Source: Massalongia carnosa (lineage: Eukaryota). From it: a stretch of 64,000 nt of DNA. Made by a program: the position numbers and the translations under genes. The notes beneath the pieces were generated by a model that was not told the DNA's origin, made no database searches, and saw only the letters and a list, made by a program, of their open reading frames with translations. How positions within the stretch are numbered: position 1 is the first letter of the stretch; every line of letters begins with the position of its first letter. Positions 7,901 through 36,039 of the stretch are shown here, in pieces. The DNA is taken from NCBI GenBank assembly GCA_965645245.1, contig OZ287076.1, forward strand, positions 1,922,001 to 1,986,000. Reading direction: 5' to 3'.

Positions 7901-8106
7901 AACGTTTTCCGGATCATTCCCCTCCCTGGAGACGTGTCATCTGATGTAGATCCTGCCAGACCTGTGGAGCGTGTTATGTAGTTGATGAACGACGGCCTGT
8001 GATTGCATACGTGCGTGTCCGCTGCGCTGTCTAGTAGCCAGGTATCTCTGTTGAGATGGTTGATGGTCATGACCTTCTGTAGAGTGGTAGTCATGACCAC
8101 TGTGAG

Positions 8107-14750: not shown

Positions 14751-15730
14751 TTTGAAAATTCGATAGAAACACGCCGTTTAAAACGATAAAAAATCTGCCT
14801 ATTAATCAACATTTCTTGATGACTAATTTTTACAATTTTCAGAATTTTCGAATATGTTTGTCTTTGTTGAATGGCGGTTGCGATTATAGTTGTAATAGCT
14901 TGTTAGGCTCACTGCCACATGGACCACGTGGATAGCGGGTAGTCTAATCTTCTCCTGGAAGGCTTTAGGTTTAGCGTGCTTTGTTTGCTAGGCTTTTCCT
15001 CTTACATAGCTATATAGTCAATGCGATTACGAGGTGATATTTTAAAGTATTCGGAATGGCCACCGTAGTGGCCACCGTAGTCTTGAAGAAAAGATGCAAG
15101 TTGATGCTATTCATGACGACGAGATGTATAATTGCTACTGTTAAATTATCCTCCAACCCCTTTGCGGGTGTAGCGTAGCCCTGCGAGCCTTAGCGCGCTA
15201 GGCAGTATATAATAGCCATGTAGACAGATCTCAATAGAACACACCTTCATGCAGTCTTCTCTTGTCAGGGGAGGGCTGGAGCGATACAAGACTCTATCTG
15301 CAGAACGGATATCTGGATATGCTAAAACTAGAAGTTGAGAATAATACACAAGACGTCCGATGAAGAGCTCTAAACACCTGGGAAACCACATAGACTTTAT
15401 AGCCATGGCTTTCAACTCTCCTATTCTCGACTTGCCCCATCTCTGTTCCTATACTAATTTCCTTAACATGATTGCTTTGACCTATCCCGCCTTTATCTGT
15501 GCTGAAGCACTCTCAGTCATAAGCCTGGATAGTGGAGACGTGGAGATTGGATACGGATTGTAGGAGATTGATAGTGCGCTAAGGGCGGCAGAAGAACGCC
15601 TGAGCACGATGGGTGAGATTTCACAGCAATGGGCCCTGTTAAATACTAACCCGATCAGGACAAGCGGGAGGGTGCGAAGCGATTCCGTGACAGTAGCTCC
15701 CCTCTTCAAGAACGAGCTCCTGCGAGTTGA

Positions 15731-18700
15731 CTAAATTTCTTGGCAACGACAGCGGGGAGTTGTACATGGGGTTATGTGTGGTCCGGGGGCGGCAGGGTAA
15801 GCAGAATGAAAGTCGTCTAAAGCTTGCTGACAATTAGTTAGGAAGTTGAATGGTTCCCAAGTAGGGGTATGTCCTTCCAATTGACGAAATGCTGCAACAG
15901 AGGGGGCTGATAACGGCGATCGTATTTTGAGTTCGGAATGCTGTTTACATACCATTCCCGTTGCCCGTCTTCTGCCATAACAGGATCACGCGGTGCTGGG
16001 TGTTGACCGGGCAAAGGGTCGGCAGGGTCGTGTTGCAAGAGATTGACATGGAAAACAGGATGAATCTTGACAGTCTCTGGGAGTTCCAACTGTACGATTA
16101 AAGGATTGTTTGGGAAGACACGATTCACCCGATATGGTCCTATATTTCTGTCGTCCAATTTCACCGTAGGTCTGGCAGTCTGGATATTCTTTGTGTTTAA
16201 CCAGACCATATCTCCGACAGAATAACGAGGGCAGGGACGACGATTTGCGTTGGCGTTGGATTCATATATGGCTTGGGCAATTAGCATTTCGTCACGCAGG
16301 TGAGAATCTAATTTCTGCATCCTGTCAGCGAATTTATCAGCAGCAATCAGATTTGCCCGGGCCTGGGTCGATATATTTTCCGGTAGAGGTTCTGCAGGTT
16401 CAAAGCCCATGCGGGGGTGTTGCCCTGAATTTGCTAAAAATGGCGATGCCAGAGTGCTAGATGAATCAGTGTTATTGGCAGCGAATTCAGCGCCAGGAAG
16501 AAATTCGACCCAATCATCCTGCATATAATTCACATAAGCCCTAAGGTAATGCTCCATGGACGCATTTGCTCTTTCCGTTTGACCATCTGTTTGAGGATGA
16601 TAACTGGTTGATAAACGAGCATCAATCTTTAGTCGTTTGCACAATTTTTGCCAGAAGTCCGATACGAATTGGGATCCACGATCAGATACTAGAACATCTG
16701 GCAGGCCATGGTGTTTCCATACATACCAATAGAAAGCTGTTGCGGCTTCTTCGACTTCCATCGTTATGGTAGGTGCGTAATGCTTTTGTTTGGATAATCG
16801 ATCAACGAATACGAGAATGTAGCGATAGGTGACTCCCATAAAGGTACTTACGGGGAGAGGACCGACATAATCCATGGATACGTCGCGCCAGCGGCGTTCT
16901 GGCGGAGGCAACGGTCGCAACCATCCTTGATATCTTTCCCGCGATGATTTAGACCGTTTACACACATGGCAGTTTCGCACGAATTGCTGAATGGTCTTAT
17001 GCATACTGGGCCACCAATAGGAGCGGTCGATAATCTCGAAGCATTTCGCACGTCCTGGATGGCCACCTACCACACTATCGTGGGCTAATTGCAGAATCCT
17101 AAGTCTCAATCTGTCTGATTTTGGTACATATCGACGATTTCGGAAGTAAAGAACACCATCCCTGTCTTCGCATTCAGCCAACTGAATTCCGCTGTGATAT
17201 CTGGTTCCGTTTTGCAGCATTACTAGAATTTTCGGGGCAAAGCGATCTCTTTGAATGGCTTGATTCCAAAGCTCGTCGGTAGGGATATCCATCGGGTCAT
17301 TGTCAGAGGCGATCTGATCTGAATCTGGATCGAGTTGAGGTTCGTCAGTATGATTATCATCTTCGTTGCCTAGATTTTCGGATTCATCGAGTTCGTGTTC
17401 CTGTTCTAAAAACGCAGGTGCTAGCCTTATGACTTCTTGTTCTAGGAAAGCGGGTGCTAATCTTATAGCAGGGAATAAATTCAGGTCTCGGGCAACTCCT
17501 TCATCTATATTATGCGATTTGATGACAGTTTGATGTTGAAATTGTCGGCGTTCGTCTGTTTCATCCCCTTCTTTAGGGAGATCTCCTGATCTCCTTGTTA
17601 GGGCGTCTGGTTTCCCACCTGCTTTTCCAGGGCGATAGATTATTTTATAATCAAATCGGGATAAGAACTCGCTCCAGCGGGCTTGACGGCGGCTCAATTG
17701 CTTGGAAGACGTGAAATATTCTAGATTTTTGTGATCCGTGATTACATTGATCGGGTGAGCGGAACCCTCCAATTCGGGTCTCCATTCTTCGAAAGCCCGA
17801 ACGATTGCCATTAACTCCTTATCATAGATTTCATAATTACACTCCGCCGGATTGTGTTTCTTGGAAAAGTAAGCAATAGGTCTTAGAACACTGTTCTTGT
17901 CATATTGCGAAAGAATTCCGGCGGATATATAATCAGAGGCGTCTGTCTCCACGATAATTGGCTTGTCTGGATCGAAGTGCAATAAGACTACGTCTGAGGT
18001 GAAGGTTCTCTTCATAGTGTCGAAAGCTTGCTGACATTTATCAGTCCATAAAAATTTCACGTCTTTTCGTGTGAGGTTGGTTAATGGGCCAGCAATCATG
18101 CTAAACCTCAGAATGAATCGTCTGTAAAAGTTCGCAAACCCTAAGAAGCTCTGTACGTCTTTCATGTTTTGGGGAGTGGGCCAATTAATAACAGTTTCGA
18201 CTTTGGCAGGGTCCATTTTTATCCCCTCTGTGGTCACGATTAGACCTAGATATGAAACTTCTTTCACATGAAAAGCGCATTTAGTGATGTCTGCTTGAAG
18301 GCCTGCCTCACGCAGTTTGATCAGAATTCTTTTGATGTGAATCTCGTGCTCTGATTCAACGTCACTGTATATCAGAATGTCATCCAAATATGCGGTGCAA
18401 AAGTCGTCCAGATACTCTCGCAGAGTATCGTTGATAAAGTGCTGAAAAGAGGCGGGTCCATTACACAACCCGAAAGGCATTACCAGGTACTCAAATAGAC
18501 CATATCTTGTGCGGAATGCGGTGAGTTCTTCGTCGCCTTCCTTTATGCGTAGGCGATTAAAGGCTGCTATTATATCTAATTTAGTAAATATTTTAGCTAT
18601 GGACAAACGATTCAAGGTCTCGGCTATCAATGGCAACGGATATCTATTCTTGATAGTGACGGCATTCAGGCCTCTGTAATCAACACAGAAGCGAAGGCCC

Positions 18701-20175
18701 CCTCCAGGCTTTTTCACGAACATGACAGGAGACGCCGCATGCGAACGGCTGGCACGAATGAACCCCTTGGCCAAATTGTCGTCTAAATACCGACGGAGTT
18801 CTTCTATTTCATCGCGGCTCATGCCGTATAACGCTTGATTTGGAGGTTGGAAGCCATCTTTCAAATTGATGGCATGGTCGTAGGGTCGGCGCTCTGGAAG
18901 CACTTCAGATTCTTTTCTAGAAAAAACGTCTAGGAATTCGTGATATTGTTTCGGTAAGATGGTGCTCGGGTCAACGTTCTTTCGTTCCCGAGTGGCTTCA
19001 AGCTCTTCTTGAATTACGGATGTTTCTAAGGTTAGCTCCTTATTCATTTTGCAGATGGTCATGTGCATATCCTTATCGCTAGGGCAGGCCTTCGGATTCA
19101 ATGGTGGAAAGGCCTGCATCGCTATTAGGCTAATGGATGAGCTAGGGTCGGAATGACTGGGACTGGGACTGGGAGGTGCTTTTATTCCTAAAAAGCGATC
19201 GATTTCATGAAGTGAGATACTAAATATCTCGTGATTTTTCTTTCTAGCAAGGCGATCGAAAGTTACTGCGCTGACTTCGCAAATTTGTGACGAATTGCTG
19301 CAGGATGTCTGAGTTGAGTTGATTATCTGAACTGAGCTGGATATCTGAGTCTGATTGGGTTTCTGGATTGGACTGAGTGTCCGAACTGATTGGGGTCTGA
19401 CACGTACATAGCTTTGTGATCGTGGTCTGATTTTCGGAGTTGTGCCTCTCTGAATGGCGGTGAGTATTCGGCTTGGGCCATCTTCTTTTTGATATTCAAA
19501 GATGGAGAGCTCGGGTTGACTGGTCTGCAGAGCTGTTTCTTCTGATTGCCATACCTTCTGACTTTCGGCAGGCATAAGAAATTCTTCTTCTTTCGTGGTG
19601 GCTGATTGCACCATTACAGGTGAAGGGCAGCAGTGTGCAAGGCAAAAGGGGGACGATAGGGACAAGGTGTTGTTGGAAAAGTTTGTAATGACTCCGTGTC
19701 TGCGAAGCCATGGGTGGCCCAAAACAATGGGGTAATGTCTTAATCCTGTTACATAAAGAAAGAGCTTTTCTACATGCCCATTTAGGTCCATGGTAACTTC
19801 GGCGATGTGAGTTATGTTGCCAGTCAATGCTGGCTGGCCATCGAAACCGGAAAGTCGTCTAGGATATTTCAATTGGTGTAAGGGGAAGTTATGAAAACGC
19901 GCGAAATCTTGATCAATAAAGGAATATCCAGATGCACCACTGTCCACAAGAATCAAAGCTTTTATTCTGGTTTGAAAACGACGTAATATACAAGAGATAA
20001 CCATATGACTATCTCTAAATGTCTCATCAGTTTCAAAAAGAGTAAGAGCAGACGCCGCCGAAAAACGATTGCTAGACATGAGCGGCGGTGTAAACGATGT
20101 GGACAGCAGGCAAGAAGAAATCAAGAAATATGGTTGTCTCTGCGCGCGACTATGCGCAGAGACTAAGCTTTTTCC
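15731..20175 (-). CDS. pol: Gypsy-A Pol (-1 frame relative to gag); chromodomain frameshifted near 15870
   Basis: LVDSGA (PR), YLDDILIY (RT), ETDAS (RH), GHPG...CHVC and SDRGSQF (IN); WYVNSI...NW / TWEPF chromodomain split between ORFs 15838-20124 and 15731-15955. Confidence 0.95.
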
Positions 20176-21401
20176 ACCTCCTGGACCTTCGATATCTGTG
20201 ACGTTGATATCGGCGTTGATTGTGCATTTGATGATCCCTCATATAGGACAAGGGAGCGAACCGCGGTTGTCTTTCGATTCGGGCAGTCACCAATGGTACC
20301 CGGATGTTGACGTCGACAATAGAAGCATAGCTTCCAGTCATCACAGATCTTACGGACTCCTGGATCCGTCAACTTATGGCCTCGAACAGCGGCCATTGCT
20401 GAACTCAGATCCATGGGATCGCCGCCGGCAGCGGCGACAGGGGCAGCAGGTGTGGTGACGGCCGGGGTGATGCGTGTGGTCATGTTGGAGGTGCTGGTCG
20501 TGGCAGGTGCAGTTCCTCGTCTAGTGGTCGGAGGATTGCTGGCATTGGTAGCAGGGGTGGTGCGAGAATGGCGATGTTTTAACTGCCTCAGGTCCCAGTC
20601 GGTGTCGGACCACATCTGCACATGATCGTCAAACGTAACGGGCCTGGACCCATCAATTTTTCGCCACGAGATTGCGGCTGCCTGTGTGGCGTAGTTGACA
20701 TTTGATCGCATGGCGTCGATTAAAGAGGCATCTTCCATTCCCGATCGTTCTTTCTTCTGTGTGAAGAGGTTATAGTATTCTTCGAAACTTAGCGTACCCT
20801 GTTTGAGGGTGTCACGAAGATAGGTGCGTGCGTCTTCTTCTTCAAAGCGATTGCCACATGCCTGGCGCAATTTCATTCGCCAATCTTTCAGACTTGTCAG
20901 CGCGCACAAGCCATCCGTTCTATACCTGTTCATCAAGTTGTGTGCTTTTTTCCCGATGGTAAGTCGGGATTCGGCATAAGTTATCTTTTCGTTCTCTGTA
21001 GGATAGCGGTCATGGTTCACATGCATCCTCTGTATCAGACTCTGTTCCCATGAATCGAGATTGTCCATGTTGCCGTCGTATTCGGCAATGTCCGGCAGCT
21101 TTTCTGACTTGGCCGGTTTGTCTGTGGAAAGGTTCTTGGACATAGCAGCTGTTACGGCGGCCACGATCGAAGTAAGGAACTCGGGACTGAGAGAGGAAGA
21201 AGGGGAAGACGTGGAAGGTGGTGTAACGATGGTGGAGGCTTGTCGTGCTTGGGCTTCCTGTTCCAATTTTGCTATTTGGTTTTGCAATCTCTCCATTTCT
21301 TGAAGGAATGGAAGGGGGTTGGCCTGCACGTAGGCAAGCTGTGCATCTGTGCTTTCAATGGGCTGCTCGGGCATAGGTTGTCCTTGATCTTGGTTTGACA
21401 T
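20163..21401 (-). CDS. gag: Gypsy-A Gag (412 aa)
   Basis: GDPMDLS motif and CFYCRRQHPGTIGDC knuckle. Confidence 0.92.
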   Translation of the reverse strand: MSNQDQGQPMPEQPIESTDAQLAYVQANPLPFLQEMERLQNQIAKLEQEAQARQASTIVTPPSTSSPSSSLSPEFLTSIVAAVTAAMSKNLSTDKPAKSEKLPDIAEYDGNMDNLDSWEQSLIQRMHVNHDRYPTENEKITYAESRLTIGKKAHNLMNRYRTDGLCALTSLKDWRMKLRQACGNRFEEEDARTYLRDTLKQGTLSFEEYYNLFTQKKERSGMEDASLIDAMRSNVNYATQAAAISWRKIDGSRPVTFDDHVQMWSDTDWDLRQLKHRHSRTTPATNASNPPTTRRGTAPATTSTSNMTTRITPAVTTPAAPVAAAGGDPMDLSSAMAAVRGHKLTDPGVRKICDDWKLCFYCRRQHPGTIGDCPNRKTTAVRSLVLYEGSSNAQSTPISTSQISKVQEVEKA

Positions 21402-21979
21402 GACTGATTATCTATAGGCAAAAAATGAAAAGAGAAAGGAAGAATAGTGCTTTGAAAAGCACAAAAAATAGCGATCGGACGTAATGTCAGGGGAGGGCTG
21501 GAGAGATACAAGACTCTATCTTGCAGAACGGATATCTAGATATGCTAAAACTAGAAGTTGAGAATAATACACAGGACGTCCGATGAAGAGCTCTAAACAC
21601 CTGGGAAACCACATAGACTTTATAGCCATGGCTTTCAACTCTCCTATTCTCGACTTGCCCCATCTCTGTTCCTATACTAATTTCCTTAACATGATTGCTT
21701 TGACCTATCCCGCCTTTATCTGTGCTGAAGCACTCTCAGTCATAAGCCTGGATAGTGGAGACGTTGAGATTGGATACGGATTGTAGGAGATTGATAGTGC
21801 GCTGAGGGCGGCAGAAGAACGCCTGAGCACGATGGGTGAGATTTCACAGCAATGGGCCCTGTTAAATACTAACCCGATCAGGACAAGCGGGAGGGTGCGA
21901 AGCGATTCCGTGACATCTCTCCTCCCTACCTGATAAACCATTTAACTGCTACCTTGATTAAATAATAAAACATGTTATC

Positions 21980-22128
21980 CATTGAATGTTCAACTTCTAC
22001 CAGCACAACAGATTAGATTAGATCAGTTCCAGTCTAACCGTATCGGTTACTTAAGACCTTTAGCGGTGTCTTAAGCAACCTAGGCTCGGATAAACTATTA
22101 TCACTTCGCTTAGTAGAGGGTGACCACA
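21980..22128 (+). mobile_element. Truncated LTR of the Copia-A family, inverted relative to Copia-A and cut at the Tc1-A TIR
   Basis: TTGAATGTTCAACTTCTACCAGC and GGCTCGGATAAACTATTATCA are reverse complements of Copia-A LTR segments. Confidence 0.7.
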
Positions 22129-22348
22129 CAGTCGACTGCAAAAGGTTGGTCGCGACCCTGAATTTGGGACCACATATCAAATATTTACGCGAAAATAGCA
22201 AAATGCCGGCAAAAATCCGAAAAACTACCCTCACCGCCTACATGCCAATGAAGTCGTACTACTGGTCAGTATTGAAGCGACTTGTAGATTAGTATATGTA
22301 GATGCCATTCCCCGTCTTTTTTCCCTCTCCCTCTGCCATTTTCCCAAA

Positions 22349-23372
22349 ATGCCCCCCCTCTCAGTGAGACCCTTCGTGAGACAATCACGCTTCGTTTTGT
22401 ACGAGGTGACAGCAATAAGACAATTGCATCTGTCACTGGTGTTGGCATCAGATAGATTCAACGAATGAGACGTAATTGGACTCATTTTGGAGATGTGGTT
22501 CTACCTCAATTGTCAATTGGACATCGCCCTCGTAAACTCAGTCAATTTCATGAGATTGAACTTCTGAAATATCTAGAGCAACGTCCGCGTGCCTATCTGG
22601 ACGACTTTCAGATCTCTGCAGATGAGACCACCGTTGGTCGTGCCCTAAAAAGGCTTGGTTGGAATCGAAAGAAGGTGATCAAACAAGCAGCTCAAAGAAA
22701 TCAAGGCCTTCGAGATGGATGGATGCAGAGACTCGGAGAATGGACTGCAGAGCAATTGATCTTTTTGGACGAAAGTGCAGCTTGCGAAAGAACCGGTTAT
22801 TTCCTATCTCATATTTCATCCCATCTTCGTCATTTTTCTGACTTTCTGACTAGGTGATCGACGATACGGATGGGCTCAGGTAGGCGTCCCTCCAATCATG
22901 ATTCAGGATTTGAAAAGGTCAAAGAGATGGAGCATTCTTCCTGCATTTACCGTCGATGGATATATAGCTTGGGAGGTGCATCAGGGCTCCATAACTGCCG
23001 AAATTTTCAACGACTTCGTTCGAAATCAGGTTCTTCCTCAGACGACTGCCAATAGAGGTCCTAGATCTGTTTTAGTACTAGATAATGCCAGCATTCATTG
23101 GAATCAGGAGCTTATTCAGATGTGCGAGACAGCCAACGTCACCTTGGCACGACTACCTCCTTATTCTCCAGATTTCATTCAATCCAATTGAAACGTCGTT
23201 TGCATTGCTAAAGGCATGGATTCGACGGAATCGAGAAATGAGTCTTTCGTACACGGAGCAGTATGGGGGATTCGGACAATTTCTTCCGGATGCAGTCAAA
23301 GATCTGAGAATGGGAGACCCGGGAAATTTATTTAGATTGGCTGGCATTCAGTATCCCACCATTTCAATCTGA
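22349..23372 (+). pseudogene. DD34E transposase of Tc1-A (intron 22796-22853, frameshifts)
   Basis: HTH region TVGRALKRLGW; FLDES...RRYGWA; VLDNASIH; LPPYSPDF-NPIE broken by a 4-bp TTCA duplication near 23175; 34 residues between D2 and E. Confidence 0.88.
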
Positions 23373-23387
23373 TTAGATACATAGTAT

Positions 23388-25555
23388 CTAATCCTCATCT
23401 TCATCTTCGGCATAATCGTATTCTAGACTATGCGTCTCATCTTCCTCAATTGTATCTCCCACTCCAGATCCTACCTCCCCGCCCCCGTCCACCTCCCCAT
23501 CCTCCATCCCCTTATCCACCCGAGTGACCGCCTGAGTGACCGCCTGAGTGGCCATTTGCGATGTCGGTAAATGGCGTTGACGCCGAGGGGGAGGCGGGGG
23601 CATTTGCTGAGATATCTGTCGAGACATTTGTCGAGACATTTGCAAAGGCATTTGCCGAGACATTTCTCTTCCAAATTTACTGACGTCTCGCGCCAGTTGA
23701 ATCCCGATTCCCGGAGGAATTCCTAGCTCCTGCCAGAACGTCTGATGCTCGATGCCTTTCAAGGATTGAACGGTCATCAGATCGTACCCACCTTCCATCA
23801 ATCGATCGCAGGCGTTGGTGAGCACTCCTTTCAAATGAGGCTTCATTTGAACGAGCCAACTGACATAGTCTTCCAGATCTTCTTCCACTGGACTGCTGCG
23901 GGCGACGGAGGGGAGAGGGAGAAATCGACTCACGCTTCGACTGCTTCTGGATGATCTCGAATCTCTCCAATCCAACGGCGTTTTCTCACGGGCTCGTCTC
24001 GAGTCAGGTAATGTAGAAGGAGCATACTAAGAAGGATAAAATGCCGAGGGGGGAAATGCCGAGTGAGGAAATGCCGAGGGGAATGCCGAGGGAAATGTCG
24101 AGGGGAATGCCAATGACGAGGGGGGAAATGTCGAGTGGGGGATTTGGTACGAGTGGTGTTGACACATGGGATGTTGATAAATGGAATGCCCACCTCCAAA
24201 GGGCATTTCCTGAGACGAGGTTTCCTGTTTTGGAGATGATGATTCAGTCTTTTTCTTACCTTTATTCAGGGAGAATAAATTCTCTCTGATCTTCGGTGGA
24301 GGTGTTCGAGAATCAACGCCTGAAATTCCATCATCTAGTGCTTTATTCCAGGTCACGAAATGAGCACTGTTGAGAGGATAATGCTGATTCTTCGTCTCAT
24401 CATCCCAACAGTACTGATCCGAAATTCCTACATGCGCGTTTTTCACAGAGATGCAGACTTTGCAACTCGGACATTCTTTCGGCCGTCATGCCTTGCAACA
24501 TGGCTCGTTCCTCCATCTCTTTTTGCTGCTTCATGGTCGCGGTTCCCAATTTCTTGGTGGCGACAGCTGTGGCAGCAGCAATAGGATCATCGGGAGGAAT
24601 GACGCCATCTTTGGTACGACTGAAGTTGAAAATAAGATCAACCGCGAAGCTTTTCTTTCGAATGCTGCTGTCTTCTAAATGAATTAGAACCTCCTCAATG
24701 GGCTGCCAGGATTCGATCAACATGAGAGCTGCTTTTTCATGCGGTTTGATTCCATTCCATAACACGGTCGCTTTGATATCGACCAAATGACAAACATACA
24801 TTTTGGAATTCGCATACGTCTCGGCTTTCAAACTCATGTCCCCGGTGTAGCTTCTCAAAAAGAATCTTTTCGACGTAGTTGAATTGACTTCGTATGGAAT
24901 CACCGTCTCGAAAACGACGTGCTTCTCATACGACATCTTCACATTTAGTAGATATTTGATTACCGTCGGAGGCAGTGGCGAAGGGGATAAACGGGAGGGT
25001 TCCTTTCTTCTTGGTTTTCTAGACTTCTTACTGACAATCGAGTTACTAGGCACATTGAGATCTTCGACATCATCTTCGGCATCATCTTCGGAATCATCTT
25101 CGGCATCATCTTCGGCATCTACAGCTTTCATCGCGTTCTCCTTTCTCCACTGACCCTGCCACCTCTGCTTCTCGTCTTCATCCGTCCAGTCGTCGGAGGA
25201 ATCCTCCGTAATGACAAGGGGACTATAATAATTCGATTCGAAAGTCTTTGACTGCTGAGGCTGGACCTTTGACTTGGGAGGGGCCTTTGGCTTGGGAGGG
25301 ACCTTTGGCTTGGGAGGGGCCTTTGGCTTGAGGGGGGCCTTTGGCTTGAAGGGGGGCTTTGACTTGAGGGGAGGCTTTGGCTTGGGAGGGGCCGACGTCG
25401 ATTCCGGCGAGGCTTCATCGATGCCGGCGGCGACAATGGCTCTGGCTCTCGGCCCTCCCAAAGTCAGTTTGATTCTCTTACCTTTGAAAGGCTCTTTTCC
25501 AGCCGGGGGGGGGGCCGGAATTTGATCTTTTTGCTCTCGGTTCACGAAGTTTCAT
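23388..25555 (-). pseudogene. Cargo gene of Tc1-A (~720 codons): Lys/Pro-rich N-terminus, CxxxxCxN..CW...HY putative Zn motif, C-terminal SAM-like helical domain
   Basis: ORFs 24400-25545, 24027-24446 and 23388-23975 join through a homopolymer slip (~25505), a 1-bp frameshift (~24418) and one in-frame TAG (24027-24029). Confidence 0.65.
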
Positions 25556-25789
25556 ATCTGAGATAAAAAATGGGGAATGGCAGAGGGGGGAGGGAAAAAA
25601 GACGGGGAATGGCATCTACATATACTAATCTACAAGTCGCTTCAATACTGACCAGTAGTACGACTTCATTGGCATGTAGGCGGTGAGGGTAGTTTTCAGA
25701 TTTTTGCCGGCATTTTGCCATTTTCGCGTAAATATTTGATGTGTGGTCCCAAATTCAGGGTCGCGACCAACCTTTTGCAGTCGACTGTA

Positions 25790-28700
25790 ACCCATCAATT
25801 TTCTTCAATGCTTACAATTTGATAGATCAGTTAAATGATCTCTTCTTTATGGCTATGCCAACCGTTTGGTTGCATGCCCCAGTATATCCGTTATTTTTCT
25901 ATCTTTTGCAGCCTGATTTGGCCTCTTAGCCTTTTCGAAGCTATTGGTTGGATTTCTTTTGATGTTCGGCCAACTTCATTATCGAAACCATACATTTCGT
26001 ACGGTTTTGTTGGTCTTGTAGACCTTCGTGCAGGCTCACTTTAGGGGGCCTGAAGTCTCTTTCTTCTCGGTTGGGGTTGATTTGGGCTAAGCACATCAGC
26101 TGGTGTGGGTTGATTGGACTCATCTCTTGGAGTGATATCTCCCACTGAATCATTGATATCCCTATTATCCCGTTCTTGGAGTGTGGATGCTATAACTTGG
26201 TTTTCAGTAGTCCTAATAGGGTTGGGAATTGACTCAGTTTGGGGAACGACTGCAATAGGGTCTGATAGTTCTCCCTCGCTATCGCTGTCGTCATTATTTG
26301 TTCCTTCTTCCACAACTGATTCTTTTCTCAGCAATTTGCCTCCTGGTTTTCCTTCGTGAAATTTGACTGACGTATGCTATTTAACCCTTCGTCTCTCTAG
26401 GTTGTATATACGCCGTTGATTGGTGGAATGGTAACCCACGAAGATGCCTTGAACGGAGACCTTATCTAGCTTGGCCCGGTTTTCGCTGGGGATGTAAACG
26501 TACACTAGGCATCTGAAAGTTCTAAGATGACTGATTGTAGGTTTCTTTCCGTACCCTTCTTCGTTGGGTGATAGATTGTCTTTGGCTGCAGGAAGTTAAT
26601 TCGTGATATAGTTAGCTGTCATAATTGCCTCTCCCCAAAATAATTGAGGAAGCTCAGCCCAAAGAACCATGGCCCTAGCAATTTGAACAACCGTTCTATT
26701 GAACCTTTCCGCCACCCCATTTTGCTCGGGTGTATATGGAGTAGTAGACTTCATTTTGACCCCGCCTGGTCGTATGAGCTCCTCGAGCTTTTGGTATTCC
26801 TTGGCATTATCACATCGATAAAGCTTCACCTTCTCCCCGGTCTCTAATTCAACCTGCTGCTGCCATTCGCTGATTTTGGAGTATATTTCCCTCCGAGACT
26901 TCAAGCAAATGGTCCAAGATTTCCTTGTAAAATCGTCAATGCAAGAGACGAAGTATCTATGGCCGCCAAGAGTATTGACTCGGTAGGGGCCCACGCGGGG
27001 CCAAAAAAAGTTCCCACACCAAAATTTCACCCACCCTAAAAATCCTTCTTTACCCATCATGAATAATCACTATTATACACGACTATATGCAACAAAAAAA
27101 TCGCTCAATCTCCTGTCATTTTACCCTCTCCATCTAGCACATCATGCATGCGTTGTGGCATTTGTTCTACTAACGAATTGATCCATTCCTGGGGAACGTG
27201 ATCTGATCCCCCCACCCTGTACGAATTGCATCTAAAGTGGTCTCATCGTCCCAATGATCCGATTTTGATAACCACTGCTTGACGGGCAGCCAGCAGTTTT
27301 CAATGATGGACAAATCGGGAGATTTTGGGGCGTTGAAGTAGTACTTTAACCCGTTTTCTTCCTTCCATTTCCGTACGATGTTGTTATTGTTGGCTGAACC
27401 ATGCCCCGAATCACCATCTTCCTCCAAAACAAATCGTTCACTCATCTCGAGACACGGCTTTACAATAGGCTCCAAAATGGAGTCTATATAGACTCTTTGA
27501 CTCATCTTTCCATTGGTGTTTCCAGTAACCTCGTAAAAAATCATATCTGATTTGTAATTCCATCCCACCCACGCCCAGCAATGAAAACGCTTTTGTACTC
27601 TTTCTTCGGGCTCTTTCCCCTCCTGCATGCAGTCAAAACAATATCTTTGACCCGGTCGACGTATAATGCGTAATCGGCGTTGAGGACCAAGCCCGAAATG
27701 AACTTCATCGCTGAAACGAACCAACTTCCAGTCCTCCAATGTCCAAGTGGTGATTTTATCTCGTGCAAAAGTACGTCTTAAAGCACGAAGATGAGGAGCA
27801 ATACAGGTTCTCGTACAAGCGATGCATTTGTGATATTCCAAGTCCTGCATAGTATTTCTGATGGTGTGCCAATGCACTCGATTACTGCCCACGAGGCCTA
27901 CTTCTTTGGCCAGTTGATGCCAGGACATAGCTCGAGCTTGAATACCTCCATTTTCAATTATTTCCTCCAGTCTCTTAAGAGTCTCCCAATCAATCGCTTT
28001 TTTTCTACCTCGATTCTCTGGCCAGACCGAGTTGTGATGAAATCGACGAGATGATTCGCCCCGAAGCATGGCGTAACCGCTCGTTCATTCCACGCCGAAA
28101 TGACGAAAAACGTCTTCTTTAAAATAGAGAATTTTATGAGCATCATTAAATTCAACAAACGCACCAGCTTGCTGGGGGCTAGTGAAGTTGTCACCGTGAC
28201 GGACGGCACCAGGCGTGTAAGCGGGATAGGGCCGGACGCTAGCAGGAGGTGAAAAACTCTTCACCTCCTCCATCCCCCCATCTCTTCTCTCTTTCCTCAT
28301 CAACACTCATCAAAAATCGTGTTTCGCTGTTTCTCCCACCCGCCCTCTCCTACACAGTCTGTCGCTTAGATAGATGGAGTATGTCTTGACCCCAGGGTTC
28401 GCATCTACAGCGTCCATGGACCCCGTAGCCTACCCGTTGCGGCTCCGTACCCGGCGCGGACGGCGCACGAACGGTGTCATGCCACACCCTAGGGTCAGGA
28501 GTTTGCCCAAACACTAGAATAGCAATAAACCCAAGGTGGCTACGTTTCACTAGCAGCTTGAACTTTAGCTTTTATGGGCGTAGAATACTCCTGATTACAG
28601 TTATGATCATCAAAATCAGGTGTACTAGAACGATTAATTGATGATTGATTATTCATAATGAGGGAGTTGGGTAAAAGAAGGATTTTTAGGGTGGGTGAAA

Positions 28701-28890
28701 TCTTTGGTGTGGGAACTTTTTTTGGCCCCGCGTGGGGCCCCAAATATCGGTATGGACCCTTCCTAAACGCCGTGATTCACTGTCTGGGGGCATGCGATTA
28801 ATGATTCGTACTTGCTTGGAAAAATCGCAAGTGCTGCAGTATGGATTTTGGGGTAAGGAAGCAAGATTAAGAGGCCCCTGAGCCACCACC
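25790..28890 (-). pseudogene. pol: Copia-E integrase region, interrupted by Tc1-B
   Basis: CSTCDFSK...HTDIWG|PYRVNTLGG...RCDNAKEY...TPEQNGVAER; close to the Copia-C family. Confidence 0.85.
26992..28734 (-). mobile_element. Tc1-B: DD38E Tc1-like transposon with ~75-bp TIRs, inserted in the GGGGCCCC of the Copia-E integrase
   Basis: TIR (C)CACGCGGGGCCAAAAAAAGTTCCCACACC...; transposase FSDEVHF...EEDGDSGH...SPDLSIIE (ORF 27170-28069; 5' part at ~28656-28085 disrupted). Confidence 0.9.
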
Positions 28891-29720: not shown

Positions 29721-32700
29721 CTAGGTCATCTGCATCTGTTCGACAAAGGTGTGGAACTTTGCGTGCGTTAGGGCCTTCGTCAGGCCGTCGGCGATCATCT
29801 CCCCAGTTGGCACGTAGGTCAACTCGATTCTCTTTGCCTCCACCTCGTCTCGGATGTAATGGTGCTGGATATCGATGTGTTTGGTCCTGGCATGGAATAC
29901 TGGGTTGTGTGCCAGAGCAAGAGATCCTTGGTTGTCACCTTTGAGTGAAACAGTGGGGTCTCCGTCGCTGGGCTTGAGGCTGTTGAGGTCTCTGTCGATC
30001 GCTTGTACGCACGAGTTCTTGTTGGAGACCTTGATCTCAGCATGCTGTTGGTCCGCTTCCAACACCCCAAGCTCTGTGAGGAGTAGACGAAGCCAGGTGG
30101 CTTCTTTGGCGGCCAGCGTGAGTGCGATGTATTCCGCTTCTGTGGAAGAGAGAGCAACTGTTAATTGCCTTTTAGAGCACCAGCTTATCGGTCCCCCGTT
30201 CAGCATAAAGATGAAACCGGATGTTGACTTCCGGCTGTCCTTGTCACCTGCCCAATCCGAGTCCGAATAGCCTTCGATTTTCAGTTCTTCATCCCCCCCA
30301 TAGGTTATGCCTCGATGTTTCGAGCCCTTGAGGTATTTGAGGATGGTTTTGACTGCTTCGGTGTGCTGATGGCTCGGGTTCTTGGCAAAGCGACTTACGA
30401 GGGACGTGGCGAAGGCAATATCTGGTCTGGTCTCTACCATGGAGAACATTATGGACCCCGTCATTCCTTGGTATCTCTCCTTCTCTGGTGGTGAGGCTTC
30501 TCCTTCCTCGCGTTGGGAGAGTGGCACAGATTCTTTCATCGGGGTGTTGACGGGGTTGGCTTTGTCGAGATGGAATCTCTCCAACACTTTTTCGATGTAG
30601 GCCGGTTGAGACAGTTTGATGGTTCGTTGCTTTCGATCCCGATCTATTCTCAGTCCTAGGTAAAAGCTGATGGGACCCATATCTGACATAGAGAATGCAG
30701 CTGTGAGTTCTGCTTTGACTCGCTTGATTATCCCACTGTCCTTTGGCGCCATAATCTTGATGTCATCTACGAAGACGCTGAGTACGGGACCTTTCAGCCC
30801 TGCACCCGATACGAATATACTGTGGTCTGCGTGGATGCGTTTCAAGCCTAGTTTCTCGAGGAGGAAGGCTGAAAAGCGTTCGTACCAGAGGCGGGGAGAT
30901 TGTTTGAGGCCGTAGATAGCTTTCAACAGTTTGCAAACCATATTCTTTGTGGCTTCTGTCTCAGTTCCCTTTGGAATCTCCATATATATCAGTTGATCAA
31001 TGAGGCCATAGAGAAAAGCCGTTTTTACGTCCATCTGGTCGATGTCCAGGTCGAAGAAGGCGGCAAGGGCGAACAGGGTTCTGAAGGCCATTGGCTTCAC
31101 CACGGATGCGTAGGTTTGATCGAAATCAACACCAAACTGCTGTAGGTACCCTTTGATAACCCATCTGGCTTTGAATCTAGATACCTTGCCTTCGACATCA
31201 CGCTTGACCTTGTACACCCACTTCCCCCCCAGAGGTCGATGACCTGACTCCATCTCGTTCTTTGGTATGAGAACCCAGGTCTTGTTTTCGTGTAGAGAGT
31301 CTATTTCTTCTTTCATTGCCTGTGCCCACTGCGAGGCGTGGGGGCATTGCATTGCCCTGTTGTATGACTCAGGTTCTTCGACATCTAATTGGGTGGCAAG
31401 GACGTAGTCTCCTTTACTTTGGGCATTGGCCTGAATGAGCCTCGAAGTCAAGATTGTGTATGGGTCGTCGTCTGCGTCATGGCCGTCCTCCTCGCATTCG
31501 ATGTTTGTCAGGAACGCGTTTGCTTTTTCCTCCGAGCTGTGTTCCCAGTCAAGGTCTAGCAGCTTGCTGAGATGTACTATCAGATCTTGATCTTGAGCCT
31601 TTTGTGTAGGCCTTATCGTTCGGCCAGACCGAGACTTCCTTGTCTCCGTAGTTTCATTTGACGCTCCAGTAGTTTCATCTCTAGTAGTGACCTTTCGGCC
31701 CTTCCTAGGGGTTACTTTACTGGGAGTTGACTCGCTGGCACCTGTTGCATTGTTGAACTTTCGGCCTACATCCAACATCTGTGTGTCGCTCGTCGCCTCG
31801 TCATCGTCATCGGAGAGTAAGAAACCTGAGAAGGTGGGAGTGTTTTTGTATTCAGGAAGCTCGGTGGACGTCTTGGCCTCGTAGTCTTCAAAGATTCTGA
31901 GATCTTTGATGCGAATGACTTTGTTCTGTTCTCGGATGTGGACTCTGTAGATTGTATGACCATCGTATCCAACAAGAATACCGCGTAAGGCTCGTGGGTT
32001 CCACTTCTCAGACTTTAAGGCTCGTTCCTCTTCGTGTAGGAGAACGTACACTGTCGAGCCTAACACTCGGAGGTGTTGGATATCTGGGTGGATTTTCTGC
32101 TGTGCATGGTAGGGGTTGTCTCCACCTAAAGCCTTCGTGGGACGAACATTTTTGACGTACGTCATCGCAAGAACAATTTCAGGCCACAGCTCGTCATCAA
32201 GGCTTCCCTCTAGGATTGTCGCTCTTGTCATATCCATGATGGTTCTTCCCATTCGTTCTGACACGCCGTTTTGTTCCTGAGAGTACGGTGCTGAGGGTTC
32301 AAAAGTGATGCCCTTCTTCGCAAACCATTCCTCTACCCTTTTGCTCTGCAGTTCTGATCCATAATCTGAACGTAGGCGTTCGACTGGTCTCTCTTTGTGT
32401 GACCTGGTTTTGCAGAGGTTGTAGAAGGTCTTAAGACATTTGAACCAATCGCTTTTCCGGGCACCAGTGTGCACTTCGGTATATCGCGTGAAGTCATCCG
32501 TAAATGTGAAGAAGTATCTCTCCCCTCCAAAACCAACAGGGTTGATGGGACCTACTAGGTCTGTGTGTATAAACTGGTACGACTCGCTTGCTCGTTTCTG
32601 AGGCTCGTGGCGGTTGTAGATTTTTGTGGCTTTCGCACGTTGGCAGCTGTCACACACGTACTTTTCTGAGTCGTCCAAGTAGTCGATCTCCAGTTTGTGG

Positions 32701-33251
32701 AGATGTTGCTTCAGTGAGGGGAAGTTGAGGTGGCCGAGTCGTTTGTGCCAGGTGGTGAGAGGTAGTTTTGATGAGGTGGTGGTCCTGTAGGCGTGTGGTG
32801 GCCACTCGTACGTGTTGGCGTCGATCTGCTTTAGATGAGTTGCAGAGACAGAGAGGTTGAGAGGGTGAAGAAGGAAGCTGGTCCTCCACCTTTCGGCGTA
32901 AGCCAGGGTTTCCTTTGTTCTTCTATCATAGAGTGTCTCGTTCTCATTATCATAGAAAATTCCATGAATGTTAAGAAGGCCGAGGCTGACAAGATTAGAA
33001 GGACTGTGGGGAAGGAAAAACACGTTGTTCAGGTTCAGGATCACTCCTTCGCGACCGTCTTTCAGGCTGAGGCGAAGGCGCACCTTTCCACGGCCTGGTG
33101 AAACCCCATCTGCAGTTGAGCCTCCGATCCGGGTAGGCTTTTCGTGGTACTCAGTCATCAAGCTTCGATCATTGCACACGTGCACGTCCGCCGCGCTGTC
33201 AACCAGCCAGGAAGCGTCTCTCGGCCCTTTGACCGCTAGCACCTTTGGTTG
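29721..33251 (-). CDS. pol: Copia-B Pol (PR-IN-RT-RH), in frame with gag after a single TGA
   Basis: WLVDSAADVH, HTDLVGP, YGLKQSPRLW, FVDDI, YSDSDWAG, KHIDIQHHY in one 1173-aa ORF. Confidence 0.95.
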   Translation of the reverse strand, partial: QPKVLAVKGPRDASWLVDSAADVHVCNDRSLMTEYHEKPTRIGGSTADGVSPGRGKVRLRLSLKDGREGVILNLNNVFFLPHSPSNLVSLGLLNIHGIFYDNENETLYDRRTKETLAYAERWRTSFLLHPLNLSVSATHLKQIDANTYEWPPHAYRTTTSSKLPLTTWHKRLGHLNFPSLKQHLHKLEIDYLDDSEKYVCDSCQRAKATKIYNRHEPQKRASESYQFIHTDLVGPINPVGFGGERYFFTFTDDFTRYTEVHTGARKSDWFKCLKTFYNLCKTRSHKERPVERLRSDYGSELQSKRVEEWFAKKGITFEPSAPYSQEQNGVSERMGRTIMDMTRATILEGSLDDELWPEIVLAMTYVKNVRPTKALGGDNPYHAQQKIHPDIQHLRVLGSTVYVLLHEEERALKSEKWNPRALRGILVGYDGHTIYRVHIREQNKVIRIKDLRIFEDYEAKTSTELPEYKNTPTFSGFLLSDDDDEATSDTQMLDVGRKFNNATGASESTPSKVTPRKGRKVTTRDETTGASNETTETRKSRSGRTIRPTQKAQDQDLIVHLSKLLDLDWEHSSEEKANAFLTNIECEEDGHDADDDPYTILTSRLIQANAQSKGDYVLATQLDVEEPESYNRAMQCPHASQWAQAMKEEIDSLHENKTWVLIPKNEMESGHRPLGGKWVYKVKRDVEGKVSRFKARWVIKGYLQQFGVDFDQTYASVVKPMAFRTLFALAAFFDLDIDQMDVKTAFLYGLIDQLIYMEIPKGTETEATKNMVCKLLKAIYGLKQSPRLWYERFSAFLLEKLGLKRIHADHSIFVSGAGLKGPVLSVFVDDIKIMAPKDSGIIKRVKAELTAAFSMSDMGPISFYLGLRIDRDRKQRTIKLSQPAYIEKVLERFHLDKANPVNTPMKESVPLSQREEGEASPPEKERYQGMTGSIMFSMVETRPDIAFATSLVSRFAKNPSHQHTEAVKTILKYLKGSKHRGITYGGDEELKIEGYSDSDWAGDKDSRKSTSGFIFMLNGGPISWCSKRQLTVALSSTEAEYIALTLAAKEATWLRLLLTELGVLEADQQHAEIKVSNKNSCVQAIDRDLNSLKPSDGDPTVSLKGDNQGSLALAHNPVFHARTKHIDIQHHYIRDEVEAKRIELTYVPTGEMIADGLTKALTHAKFHTFVEQMQMT

Positions 33252-34208
33252 TCAACTTTCGCGGGACGGGGTCTCGGAAGGGCTCTCTGTCTGGCTTTGG
33301 AGGTTTTGCCTAGAGCCTTTTGTTCTCATCTGATGCAGCGAGTGTTTTGGCCGAAGTTCGGGGTATCTCAGGAAACAACGGTCTGTGTAGTGCTGTGTAT
33401 TTCCCTTCTTGATGCAATCTGAGTTTGTGCAGGTCCCCGGGGGTGCTCGATTACTAGGCTTTGGTGGTTTGGAGGTGAAGAGTGCCGATTGTTTGGGTGT
33501 GCCGGATTGTCCTGGAGTTTGGTCGTTCTCTTTCCTGATTTCTGCAAACCGGATAAGCTTTTTAGTGCTCTCGGCGATGTTTGTGTTCCCCATTTTCCAC
33601 TCTGTCTCCATCATAGAGACGATCCCCGAGTATTCGTTTCCCATCCCAGTGAGCAGTCCTGCCTGCAGGAGTACCTCGGCTCCTTTTGCGGGGATCTCGG
33701 AATCTGTGGGAATGAGGCCGCACACAGTGTCGTAGGCCTCTTGGTATTTGCTGCAATATTCGTGAATGTCTGTGCAGTCCGATAGTCGTAATTTGGTGGT
33801 CTCCAGGATGAGTCGCGAGATGCTCATTGGAGAGATGTGCTGAAATTTCGTTTGTAGGGTTTCCCACATTTCCTTGGCTTCTTTGCCCTCGATAGCTGCT
33901 TGGTGTTTGGAGGCTACGGAGTTTTTGATGATGCCCTCCGCTTTGCTCAGGGAGGCTCGGTGCTCTTTAATTTCGGTGGAGAGGGCAGTCCAGAGTGCTT
34001 GGGCCGTCATTTCGGTGGGTTTGAAGCCCATGGCTATGATGTCCGATCTGACGGACTCCTTCGTTGGCTCTGGCTTTCCGGTGACTGCCCAGGCGCAGTT
34101 CTTCTGCTTGAGCTCTCCCAGAATGTAGGATCGCCATAATGTATAGTTCTCGGAGCCTTGGAGAATGATGCGGGGAGCCTTCTCCTGCTCTTCTCGTCGG
34201 TCTGACAT
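33252..34208 (-). CDS. gag: Copia-B Gag (ATG 34208, MSDRREEQEK...)
   Basis: ILQGSENYTLW, AKEMWETLQ, CTNSDC...HYTDRC; ends with TGA in frame with pol. Confidence 0.9.
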   Translation of the reverse strand: MSDRREEQEKAPRIILQGSENYTLWRSYILGELKQKNCAWAVTGKPEPTKESVRSDIIAMGFKPTEMTAQALWTALSTEIKEHRASLSKAEGIIKNSVASKHQAAIEGKEAKEMWETLQTKFQHISPMSISRLILETTKLRLSDCTDIHEYCSKYQEAYDTVCGLIPTDSEIPAKGAEVLLQAGLLTGMGNEYSGIVSMMETEWKMGNTNIAESTKKLIRFAEIRKENDQTPGQSGTPKQSALFTSKPPKPSNRAPPGTCTNSDCIKKGNTQHYTDRCFLRYPELRPKHSLHQMRTKGSRQNLQSQTESPSETPSRES

Positions 34209-34288
34209 TTTGTGGTTTTTTGGGCGAAGAGTTCTCAACGCCTTTGGGTTGTAGGAAGGTGGGTTGCCTTGTAGCTGTTGTGGTATGC

Positions 34289-35208
34289 GAGCGTCTTCGC
34301 TTCGTAACCTTTGGTATATGAGCAAGTTCTCCGCCTCGTAGCCTTCGGTATGTGAGCGTTCTGCTTCGTATGAGCGTCTTCGCCTCGTAGCCGTCTGGTA
34401 TGTGAGCGTCTTCGCTTCGTAACCTTTGGTATATGAGCAAGTTCTCCGCCTCGTAGCCTTCGGTATGTGAGCGTTCTGCTTCGTATGAGCGTCTTCGCCT
34501 CGTAGCCGTCTGGTATGTGAGCGTCTTCGCTTCGTAACCTTTGGTATATGAGCAAGTTCTCCGCCTCGTAGCCTTCGGTATGTGAGCGTTCTGCTTCGTA
34601 TGAGCGTCTTCGCCTCGTAGCCGTCTGGTATGTGAGCGTCTTCGCTTCGTAACCTTTGGTATATGAGCAAGTTCTCCGCCTCGTAGCCTTCGGTATGTGA
34701 GCGTTCTGCTTCGTATGAGCGTCTTCGCCTCGTAGCCGTCTGGTATGTGAGCGTCTTCGCTTCGTAACCTTTGGTATATGAGCAAGTTCTCCGCCTCGTA
34801 GCCTTCGGTATGTGAGCGTTCTGCTTCGTATGAGCGTCTTCGCCTCGTAGCCGTCTGGTATGTGAGCGTCTTCGCTTCGTAACCTTTGGTATATGAGCAA
34901 GTTCTCCGCCTCGTAGCCTTCGGTATGTGAGCGTTCTGCTTCGTATGAGCGTCTTCGCCTCGTAGCCGTCTGGTATGTGAGCGTCTTCGCTTCGTAACCT
35001 TTGGTATATGAGCAAGTTCTCCGCCTCGTAGCCTTCGGTATGTGAGCGTTCTGCTTCGTATGAGCGTCTTCGCCTCGTAGCCGTCTGGTATGTGAGCGTC
35101 TTCGCTTCGTAACCTTTGGTATATGAGCAAGTTCTCCGCCTCGTAGCCTTCGGTATGTGAGCGTTCTGCTTCGTATGAGCGTCTTCGCCTCGTAGCCGTC
35201 TGGTATGT
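34289..35208. repeat. Eight perfect 115-bp tandem units in the Copia-B 5' leader
   Basis: Units start at 34289, 34404, 34519, 34634, 34749, 34864, 34979, 35094; each is built from ~4 GAGC..(C/T)TCGTA subrepeats. Confidence 0.97.
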
Positions 35209-36039
35209 GAGCGTTTGCCTCGTAGCCTTTGGTATATGAGCGTTCTACTTCGTATCCTTTCAGTACGTGGGCGTAGCACTCTTCCTATCTATTGTGGTAG
35301 GTGGTCAGGCGCATTGGCTTGATTCCACACCGCCATTTCAGAATTGGCTCCTTTTGGTAGCCAAGTGGGGTCGGATGCTACCTCATAGTAGCATTCTTAA
35401 CCCTCCTGCCTCACACCGCTCCTCCTGTTCTAGGTGCATTGCTCTGGGGGGTGTGGGGTATTTGTGGCCTGTCGCTAGCGAAGATTAATGAGCTTATGCG
35501 CTGGCCGGGCTCATAACCTGTAGAAGTATGAGGTTATATATTTTTGTTATATTGATGATTCTATGACTCTACTTCTAAGGTCTGAAATCCTCCTAGTCCA
35601 GGATGCGTGCCGCATACCGGAATAGGTCTACTGTTACACGTGACCATAATAATGTCTAGCGCCATAGGTTGGTATCCAACAAACCGTCTTCTGTTTGTTG
35701 GCCTTCTAGTCTATTAGGCCTCCGAATAGCTCCATTGCGTAGCCCTGCGAGCTGTACCTAGTCTGCAGGTCGTCAGCAAAACTGGAGTCACTGCTGACTA
35801 TCAGGACTTCTTTTGGTATGACTTCTCTTGGTATGATTATGCGACCGTCGAACATGATTGATAAGGTCCTTGTTGAAACGAGGTAACCAATCACCCTATT
35901 CACGAACTCGATTTGTCTGTGTGAGAGGTTGTTTAAATGTTCTGATAATTTGGAGGCCGAACTTGCTATATCAGGCCTTGTAATAACCGCAGGGAAATTG
36001 ACGTGCCCTACTTTCGTTTGGTATTGAAATATGTCTTGT

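Follow-up and report, generated by a model that had tools for sequence, protein, structure and literature searches.

A Tc1-like transposon family with a conserved second gene tail to tail with the transposase

Results and discussion

Two convergent genes between long terminal inverted repeats

We analyzed a stretch of 64,000 nucleotides from the genome assembly of Massalongia carnosa (GCA_965645245.1, contig OZ287076.1, positions 1,922,001 to 1,986,000 of the forward strand). We refer to this whole stretch as the window and give all coordinates as window positions. The window hosts a transposon of 3,661 bp (22128-25788), which forms a single Tc1-type unit and carries two genes lying tail to tail: a transposase on the plus strand and a second gene on the minus strand, hereafter the partner, each with its ATG just inside one of two long terminal inverted repeats (TIRs). 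Elements with both genes in the same arrangement recur in a distant family on metagenome contigs, and the existence of a two-gene Tc1 family is, in our view, very likely. We consider it probable that the two-gene arrangement is conserved because the partner acts in the service of the transposon.

The TIRs are around 214 nt long, with 22128-22340 pairing with 25788-25576 over 214 columns at 97.2% identity, and their global alignment contains four mismatches and two one-base gaps. The 30-nt terminus occurs exactly twice in the window (0.00 expected), and no further copies of the element were found within these 64 kb. The transposase ATG, at 22349, lies 8 nt beyond the left TIR and its TGA stop occupies 23370-23372, while the partner runs from an ATG at 25555-25553, 20 nt inside the right TIR, to a TAG stop at 23390-23388 (Table 1). 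A first-pass annotation, made by reading the letters of the same stretch, had already placed the transposase start a few nucleotides inside the left TIR and counted 15 nt between the stops (23372 and 23388), and both statements agree with our measurements. It had also given TIRs of about 217 bp and a partner start some 15 nt inside the right one; the long TIRs and the position just inside hold, with the values corrected to 214 nt and 20 nt.

GCAAAA-type words are found at the terminus (22136-22146, CTGCAAAAGG) and twice in tandem within the left TIR (22198-22219, GCAAAATGCCG and GCAAAAATCCG), and the terminus of the distant metagenome family likewise reads TGCAAAACC. These words are possible candidates for transposase binding sites.

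The 45 nt to the left of the element (22082-22127) correspond to the end region of another repeat, whose other copies, at 3694-3737 and 10743-10786, continue as ...GACCAACATAAAAGG. The right flank of the element differs from this continuation and is not a continuation of the left flank. Therefore, there is no clean target duplication at the window copy, which was possibly rearranged following insertion.

Table 1. Features of the two-gene element in window coordinates
Feature	Position	Strand	Remarks
Left TIR	22128..22341		~214 nt, terminus ACAGTCGACTGCAAAAGG
Transposase exon 1	22349..22795	+	Putative helix-turn-helix DNA-binding part, and first catalytic D, in FLDESAACERTG
Transposase intron	22796..22853	+	58 nt, GT..AG; predicted from reading frames
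Transposase exon 2	22854..23372	+	DDE_3 catalytic core, D-34-E; TGA 23370-23372
Spacer between convergent stop codons	23373..23387		15 nt
Partner gene	23388..25555	-	722 codons (721 aa) once two extra bases are removed from its 2,168 nt
Partner C-terminal five-helix domain	23670..23897	-	SSPVEEDLEDYVSW...PPGIGIQLARDVSKFG; SAM-like or helix-hairpin-helix-like in model
Partner long helix, CCCH knuckle (C-x4-C-x5-C-x8-H) and two more helices	24267..24603	-	Matches no known fold
Partner central domain	24604..24963	-	Beta-grasp (PB1-like) in model of relative P0038; family-defining block VIKYLLNV...KATVLWNGIK...DLIFNFSRTKDG
Partner N-terminal low-complexity part	25051..25389	-	Lys/Pro-rich repeats (PPKPKPPLKSKPPFKPKAPLKPKAPPKPK), then acidic Asp/Glu run
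Right TIR	25575..25788		~214 nt

The window copy is dead and the commonest form of the element is open

The window copy is dead, with both genes broken by seven lesions in all. The four lesions of the transposase are the loss of 1 nt in a run of C after the ATG, a TAG at 22453-22455, an in-frame deletion of 24 nt at 22598 and an insertion of 4 nt at 23174, within YSPDF/NPIE. The partner bears 1-nt insertions at 25505, in a run of G, and at 24417, as well as a TAG at 24029-24027 where other copies have CAG.

High-depth contigs from all four public sequencing runs considered (X1, X2, X3 and X5) differ from the window at the sites of these lesions and repair six of the seven. In the transposase they add a C after 22351, turn the TAG into CAG (T>C at 22453) and omit the 4 nt at 23174; in the partner they omit 1 nt at 24417 and at 25505 and turn the TAG into CAG on the minus strand (A>G at 24029). 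As for the seventh lesion, the 24 missing bases are present in a contig from X1 and show up as loose ends in X2, X3 and X5. Since the run contigs differ from the window at exactly the lesions, both reading frames are open in the form of the element that is commonest in these runs. One of the runs may be the source of the window itself, and the four do not count as independent witnesses. Two contigs span the tail-to-tail junction, one from X1 (2,511 nt, covering 22298-24787) and one from X3 (1,125 nt, covering 23193-24317). In X2 and X3 the contigs of the element have 13-20 times the depth of the unique right-flank contig, a depth that is not a copy number and that we did not use as evidence.

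A distant metagenome family has the same two genes

We scanned metagenome contigs with two relatives around 30% identical to the window partner, which returned 18 loci (L001-L018) belonging to a single DNA family, 68-99% alike over aligned stretches of at least 350 nt. In eight of them (L001, L002, L003, L010, L011, L012, L014 and L015), a full convergent transposase is encoded on the other strand, starting to match 1.0-1.1 kb further downstream than the partner; all three pieces of the window transposase align to it, with identities of 30-45%, 35-60% and 43-64%. Inverted repeats of 119-172 nt enclose these same eight loci, lying 3,481-3,590 bp apart and reaching 100% identity in L002 and 99.4% in L010. 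All elements with both TIRs (8/8) thus hold the partner together with the convergent transposase, and no full-length element lacking either gene was seen among the 18 loci. The other ten are truncated, degenerate or end at the contig end: L004 and L016 retain parts of the transposase, and in L005-L009, L013, L017 and L018 the likeness ends after 1.0-2.2 kb or with the contig. The weak transposase match of L013 belongs to a separate 1.5-kb element upstream.

TA is found on both flanks at four independent insertion sites (L002 and L010, which share one; L011 and L014, which share another; L012; and L015). In L002, the partner starts 4 nt and the transposase 44 nt inside its TIR, with 36 nt between the two stops. 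Taking both families together, the TIRs measure ~214 nt in the window copy and 158-172 nt in the distant family, the start codons lie 4-44 nt inside them, and 15-36 nt separate the stop codons. The partners of the two families are 30% identical over 199 aa of the centre (E=2e-22) and 49% over 77 aa of the C-terminal domain (E=5e-18), which is the best conserved part of the protein between families. The L001 partner is almost complete, interrupted by a single frameshift and a single TGA.

Two of these records, L010 (309-3878) and L002 (767-4337), derive from the same insertion site, and 270 of their 281 differences are C>T or G>A. As many as 198 of these 270 changes fall at the first C of 5'-CpC-3' and 4 at CpA, against a background of 353 CpC and 503 CpA, and the terminal 200-nt bins of L010 contain 2 and 0 changes. 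L010 is therefore hypermutated, with a CpC-biased C>T pattern unlike the CpA bias of classical repeat-induced point mutation. This CpC-biased hypermutation accounts for the nine internal stops of L002, every one a TGA and the majority at positions occupied by Trp in relatives. An alternative genetic code reading TGA as Trp was considered for the metagenome family and rejected, as L001 has TGG at five of the positions and the changes fit hypermutation.

Close relatives fall into two subfamilies

A HMMER search with the central 199 aa of the window partner returned 26 proteins with E<=0.001, nine of which had E<=1e-10 and three E<=1e-30. One cluster, P0003, is 97% identical to the window partner and has eight members, on at least seven other large contigs of 0.23 to 2.8 Mb. 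A second subfamily is 55% identical to the window partner in the central domain and includes three open copies of 584 aa that reach the C-terminus (P0038, P0181 and P0182). Conservation between the two subfamilies is uneven: the C-terminal domain agrees at 23-24 of 30 residues, the centre at 16-21 of 30 and the acidic part at 6-7 of 21-27.

The transposases of cluster P0047, with 86% identity to the window enzyme, occur on contigs of five different lengths, and contigs of all five lengths also bear partners of the second subfamily. This match by length is no more than suggestive. More telling is a single contig of 8,751 nt that holds both a relative of the partner (P0014, 32% identity) and a relative of the transposase (P0135, 53%).

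The transposase is a Tc1-like enzyme of the DD34E type

By its sequence features, the transposase is an ordinary DD34E Tc1-like enzyme of the IS630-Tc1-mariner group. The Pfam DDE_3 profile (PF13358) matches window 22898-23191 with E=6.2e-16 and 59 bits, compared to a cut-off of 28.6, matches locus L001 with E=6.4e-19, and is found in nearly all of the 120 relatives among the matches listed. The second D and the E are spaced by 34 residues in all four intact copies checked (P0043, P0047, P0135 and P0048), and the window copy also gives D-34-E once the 4-nt insertion at 23174 is skipped. The DD34E assignment of the first-pass annotation is well supported by these two results. At the N-terminus, the HTH_33 profile scores 20.2 and 22.4 bits, under the Pfam cut-off of 25, and HTH_29 and HTH_32 are weaker still. 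The nearest solved structure by sequence is the catalytic domain of Sleeping Beauty (5cr4_A), a weak match (E=0.05), and the Pfam scans of the transposase returned no match to the MULE family. The predicted intron would join ...ACERTG to DRRYGW... in frame, and the metagenome family has an intron at the same position.

The partner belongs to a protein family without a Pfam entry

Database copies of the partner read through the breaks of the window copy. P0003 and P0039 are uninterrupted across the frameshift at 24417 and the stop at 24027, and P0036 (573 aa) begins MKLRGPRSKRANTGPP, resembling the MKLREPRAKRSNSGPP of the window, which confirms the partner ATG. The earlier reconstruction of a single open reading frame was therefore right, and so were the Lys/Pro-rich N-terminus and the H-x-C-x4-C motif (LHLCEKRACRNFGQYCWNDETKNQHY) that it had listed. 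Sequence and models together suggest a modular protein that begins with a basic tail rich in Lys and Pro and with an acidic run, continues with a PB1-like beta-grasp domain and a long helix bearing a CCCH knuckle, and, after a disordered linker, closes with a SAM/helix-hairpin-helix (HhH)-like bundle and an acidic stretch. Across the family, the knuckle reads C-x4-C-x5-7-C-x6-9-H. The C-terminal bundle contains the near-invariant PGIGIQLARDVSK, which resembles the hairpin signature of HhH motifs.

Pfam searches with partner pieces and relatives gave nothing above chance, with no family at E<=5 for P0002 and none for P0038, P0036 or the C-terminal half of L001. In particular, these scans detected no TnpB-like, tyrosine recombinase, nuclease or methylase family, and no Myb or SANT family. 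A profile search of the PDB with the partner found no solved relative (best match a GATA finger, E=0.032), and the last 190 aa of P0038 recovered only P0038 and P0039. The protein Atlas returned only unnamed clusters, with Basidiomycota or Oomycota as the commonest phylum and a SAM cluster first appearing at rank 17 with a score of 0.82.

To describe the fold we relied on an AlphaFold2 (AF2) model of P0038, built on a 32-row alignment and with a mean predicted local distance difference test (pLDDT) of 64.9. Residues 80-310 are modelled with confidence (pLDDT 80-96), residues 425-500 form a fair bundle (70-87) and the remainder is disordered, including the N-terminal low-complexity part. Foldseek gave no match to this model at E<=0.001, the best being superantigen beta-grasp domains (E=9e-3). 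Residues 81-196 resemble the PB1 domain of 4mjs_A (Z 7.4, root-mean-square deviation 3.0, 85/88 residues) and, at Z 5.4-6.6, those of MAP2K5, NBR1, Cdc24 and Par6; no acidic OPCA motif was seen by eye in this domain. Residues 422-505 match SAM chains (3k1r_B, 3bs5_B, 5jti_A and 9l2g_A) at Z 5.3-6.6, and the (HhH)2-type N-terminal domain of RAD51C and the AR domain of NusA at Z 5.4-6.8; the N-terminal domain of RAD51 also matches, within the overall range of 5.3-6.8. Since Z-scores under 8 (under 13 for helical bundles) possibly reflect a mere common arrangement, we use 'PB1-like beta-grasp' and 'SAM/HhH-like' as labels and not as family memberships. The SAM-like C-terminal block of the first-pass annotation is matched by SAM chains at middling Z-scores in the model and by no SAM Pfam profile, and HhH domains match in the same range. 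The knuckle segment, folded alone, has a mean pLDDT of 70 (~90 for residues 80-150); none of 48,161 chains matched it at Z>=5 (best 4.6), and the best Foldseek match had E=0.42. The partner defines a protein family without a Pfam entry or a name in the databases searched, and one of its modules has no recognisable fold.

Comparison with known transposons

Tc1/mariner elements are textbook transposons that need only their own transposase, hence the ease with which they cross between species and their use in gene delivery. Compared to Tc1-like DD34E elements such as Sleeping Beauty, the one described here has in addition a conserved gene for a 721-aa protein on the opposite strand, is 3.6 kb long rather than ~1.6 kb, and contains a predicted intron in the transposase. 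It shares with the long 'IR/DR' (inverted repeat/direct repeat) elements of the Tc1-like DD34E type, such as Sleeping Beauty, the DDE_3 domain, the D-34-E spacing, repeats of ~200 nt and, in the distant family, the TA flanks. A helix-turn-helix N-terminus may also be shared, with HTH_33 remaining below the Pfam cut-off here. In Sleeping Beauty, each repeat contains a pair of binding sites, and the host protein HMGB1 is used as well.

The genes of maize MuDR, mudrA and mudrB, converge from promoters in TIRs of ~215 nt, and the presence of two genes inside long TIRs is common to MuDR and our element. They differ in the transposase, which here is of the DDE_3 and not of the MURA/MULE type, and in the flanks, TA as opposed to a target duplication of 9-11 bp. 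The first-pass annotation had described the layout as MuDR-like, which is correct for the convergent genes in long TIRs and does not extend to kinship. The second gene of MuDR encodes, according to one account, a protein whose biochemical function is unknown but which integration apparently requires (PMC6446971).

Additional genes within Tc1/mariner elements are described, in two further sources, for the ciliate TBE and Tec elements, with a zinc-finger protein in TBE (PMC7325037), and for Mariner elements with Fanzor1, endonuclease or methyltransferase genes (PMC3627910). The earlier statement that Tc1/mariner elements normally encode only a transposase holds as the classical rule, to which these elements are exceptions. 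They share with the element in the window a DD34E or Mariner transposase accompanied by further genes inside the TIRs. Their extra genes encode tyrosine recombinases, zinc-finger proteins, TnpB-like Fanzor proteins, nucleases and methylases and are found in ciliates, protists and giant viruses, whereas the element described here has a single partner, from a family not described before, on fungus-like contigs and in a fixed tail-to-tail layout. In PIF/Harbinger, which has a Myb-like protein, and in CACTA En/Spm, with TnpA and TnpD, a second protein attaches to the transposon ends, where it brings in the transposase or helps it. By analogy, the same two-protein cut-and-paste scheme may apply to our element, and it is the working model that we propose. 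The transposase superfamilies and the target duplications are different, and the partner has no Myb or SANT domain.

We found no description of a fungal two-gene Tc1 family in full-text searches of the literature or in the accessible part of a survey of fungal cut-and-paste elements (PMC5751038), with Repbase, subscription journals and supplementary files lying outside this scope. In fungal and lichen-associated assemblies, gene callers break these copies up and report the pieces as many separate 'hypothetical proteins', annotations that recognition of the family would tidy up.

Does the second gene serve the element?

The two-component Tc1 family put forward by the first-pass annotation is supported by the contigs that bridge the two genes in X1 and X3 and by the eight full-length distant elements, all of which carry both. 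The other copies that it had proposed to look for exist: the partner is multi-copy, transposon-borne and conserved domain by domain, and does not represent a piece of some host gene present once. Among the copies available, neither of the two refuting conditions that the annotation had named was observed. As the partner has been kept beside the transposase while identity fell to 35-64% for the transposase and 30-49% for the partner, we take it to be maintained by selection on the element, and we read the constraint on the protein from this retention and from its uneven conservation between subfamilies. A second large protein kept for so long suggests that the element needs something beyond its transposase, such as pairing of the ends on long repeats, targeting to chromatin or escape from host defence.

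Several observations weigh against a conserved partner in the service of the element. All copies readable as DNA, namely the window copy and L001-L018, are broken, and intact partner frames occur as database proteins, the longest of which (584 and 573 aa) do not span all 721 residues. The window copy itself has CA at its left flank and TA at its right, with no clean TA duplication. Matching contigs by their Mb size is weak evidence that P0047 and the partners of the second subfamily are linked. The two families possibly come from related fungi, and they represent two deep lineages and not a broad survey. Pairwise dN/dS ratios (nonsynonymous over synonymous substitution rates; NG86 method, L001 against ten other copies) range from 0.29 to 1.79 for the partner and from 0.39 to 1.90 for the transposase, which makes selection visible on neither gene; the ratios carry little information, as expected for hypermutated copies that have been decaying since they inserted. 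Every fold match is middling (Z under 8), and Pfam returned no SAM, PB1, HhH or zinc-finger match, even at E<=5 for the C-terminal piece. Finally, the role that we assign to the partner is drawn from comparison and modelling.

How the partner would act is a matter of more tentative judgement. That it is a transposon-encoded cofactor of transposition is a reasonable possibility, to which we give somewhat less than even weight. According to this model, the partner would bind DNA or chromatin via its basic tail, knuckle and hairpin motif, would self-associate through the beta-grasp and SAM-like modules, and would aid the transposase in pairing the two long TIRs or steer integration. Because each ATG abuts a TIR, both genes are presumably transcribed from promoters within the TIRs, and their transcripts would have to overlap at the 3' ends, a gap of 15-36 nt being too short for two terminators; the antisense RNA that the first-pass annotation expected from such an overlap would be a possible consequence. 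Comparable helpers are MURB for MuDR, the Myb-like protein for PIF/Harbinger and the host HMGB1 for Sleeping Beauty. A bolder version, in which the 721-aa protein would be an obligatory polymerising architectural protein that binds the TIRs and without which the DD34E transposase could not pair ends or integrate, appears to us rather unlikely. If true, it would be the first such Tc1/mariner system outside ciliates, with a layout that converged on that of MuDR.

The partner could alternatively be a cargo that benefits the element, or itself, by means unrelated to the chemistry of transposition, such as an anti-silencing factor, a damper of transposition or a selfish passenger. There are precedents in the Mariner-type elements with Fanzor1, endonuclease and methyltransferase genes, for which the accessible text shows no role in transposition (PMC3627910). 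The partner also changes faster than the transposase, with 55% compared to 86% identity between subfamilies if P0047 is indeed the transposase of the second one. Rapid divergence of this kind is often seen in proteins engaged in a conflict with their host, and the hypermutated copies (270 of 281 changes C>T or G>A) show that hosts do attack these elements. Some lineages should however have lost a pure passenger, whereas all eight full-length distant elements retain the partner, with position and orientation unchanged. Its basic tail, knuckle and oligomerisation-type folds would be as appropriate for a factor acting on DNA or chromatin as for an antagonist of silencing, so that structure does not discriminate between the two. 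Overall, we judge a cargo unlikely, with a small but real chance of being correct.

Two other origins of the second frame are far less probable than any of these. The single copy in the window, with both genes broken, and the lack of a transposon pedigree for the partner among known families would fit a one-off, Pack-type capture of a host gene fragment without a role. Such a capture is very improbable, given that the partner is multi-copy on many contigs and in two subfamilies, occupies the same position in a family whose partner is only 30-49% identical, and conserves both its full length and the geometry of an ATG at the TIR. We give equally little credence to a nested or composite origin, with the partner coming from a different transposon that inserted into, or fused with, a single-gene Tc1 element. 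The window is a dense pile of transposons, with another Tc1-like element only 1.2 kb away, which makes nesting conceivable; however, no second repeat pair or duplication was found around the partner, its ATG abuts the outer TIR in both families, and the size of the element is constant across families (about 3.55-3.66 kb).

Genomic surroundings of the element

The window consists almost wholly of repeats, with transposons piled up around the two-gene element. A gypsy-type long terminal repeat (LTR) retrotransposon (15263-21915) ends 212 nt to its left; the LTRs, at 15263-15692 and 21485-21915, are 98.6% alike, a third LTR copy lies at 60590-61020, and the pol frame is open over 1,466 aa (reverse transcriptase, RNase H and integrase). 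To the right, 26986-28740 is a separate single-gene Tc1-like element with inverted repeats of 57 nt (82%) and a DDE_3 frame at 27170-28084 on the minus strand, whose transposase has no similarity to that of the two-gene element. Frames of copia or gypsy type (RVT_2 or RVT_1, rve and gag) are found at 5281-8904, 29721-35288, 36555-41165, 45465-46484 and 51318-56332, and the one at 36555-41165 is an open polyprotein frame of 1,536 aa.

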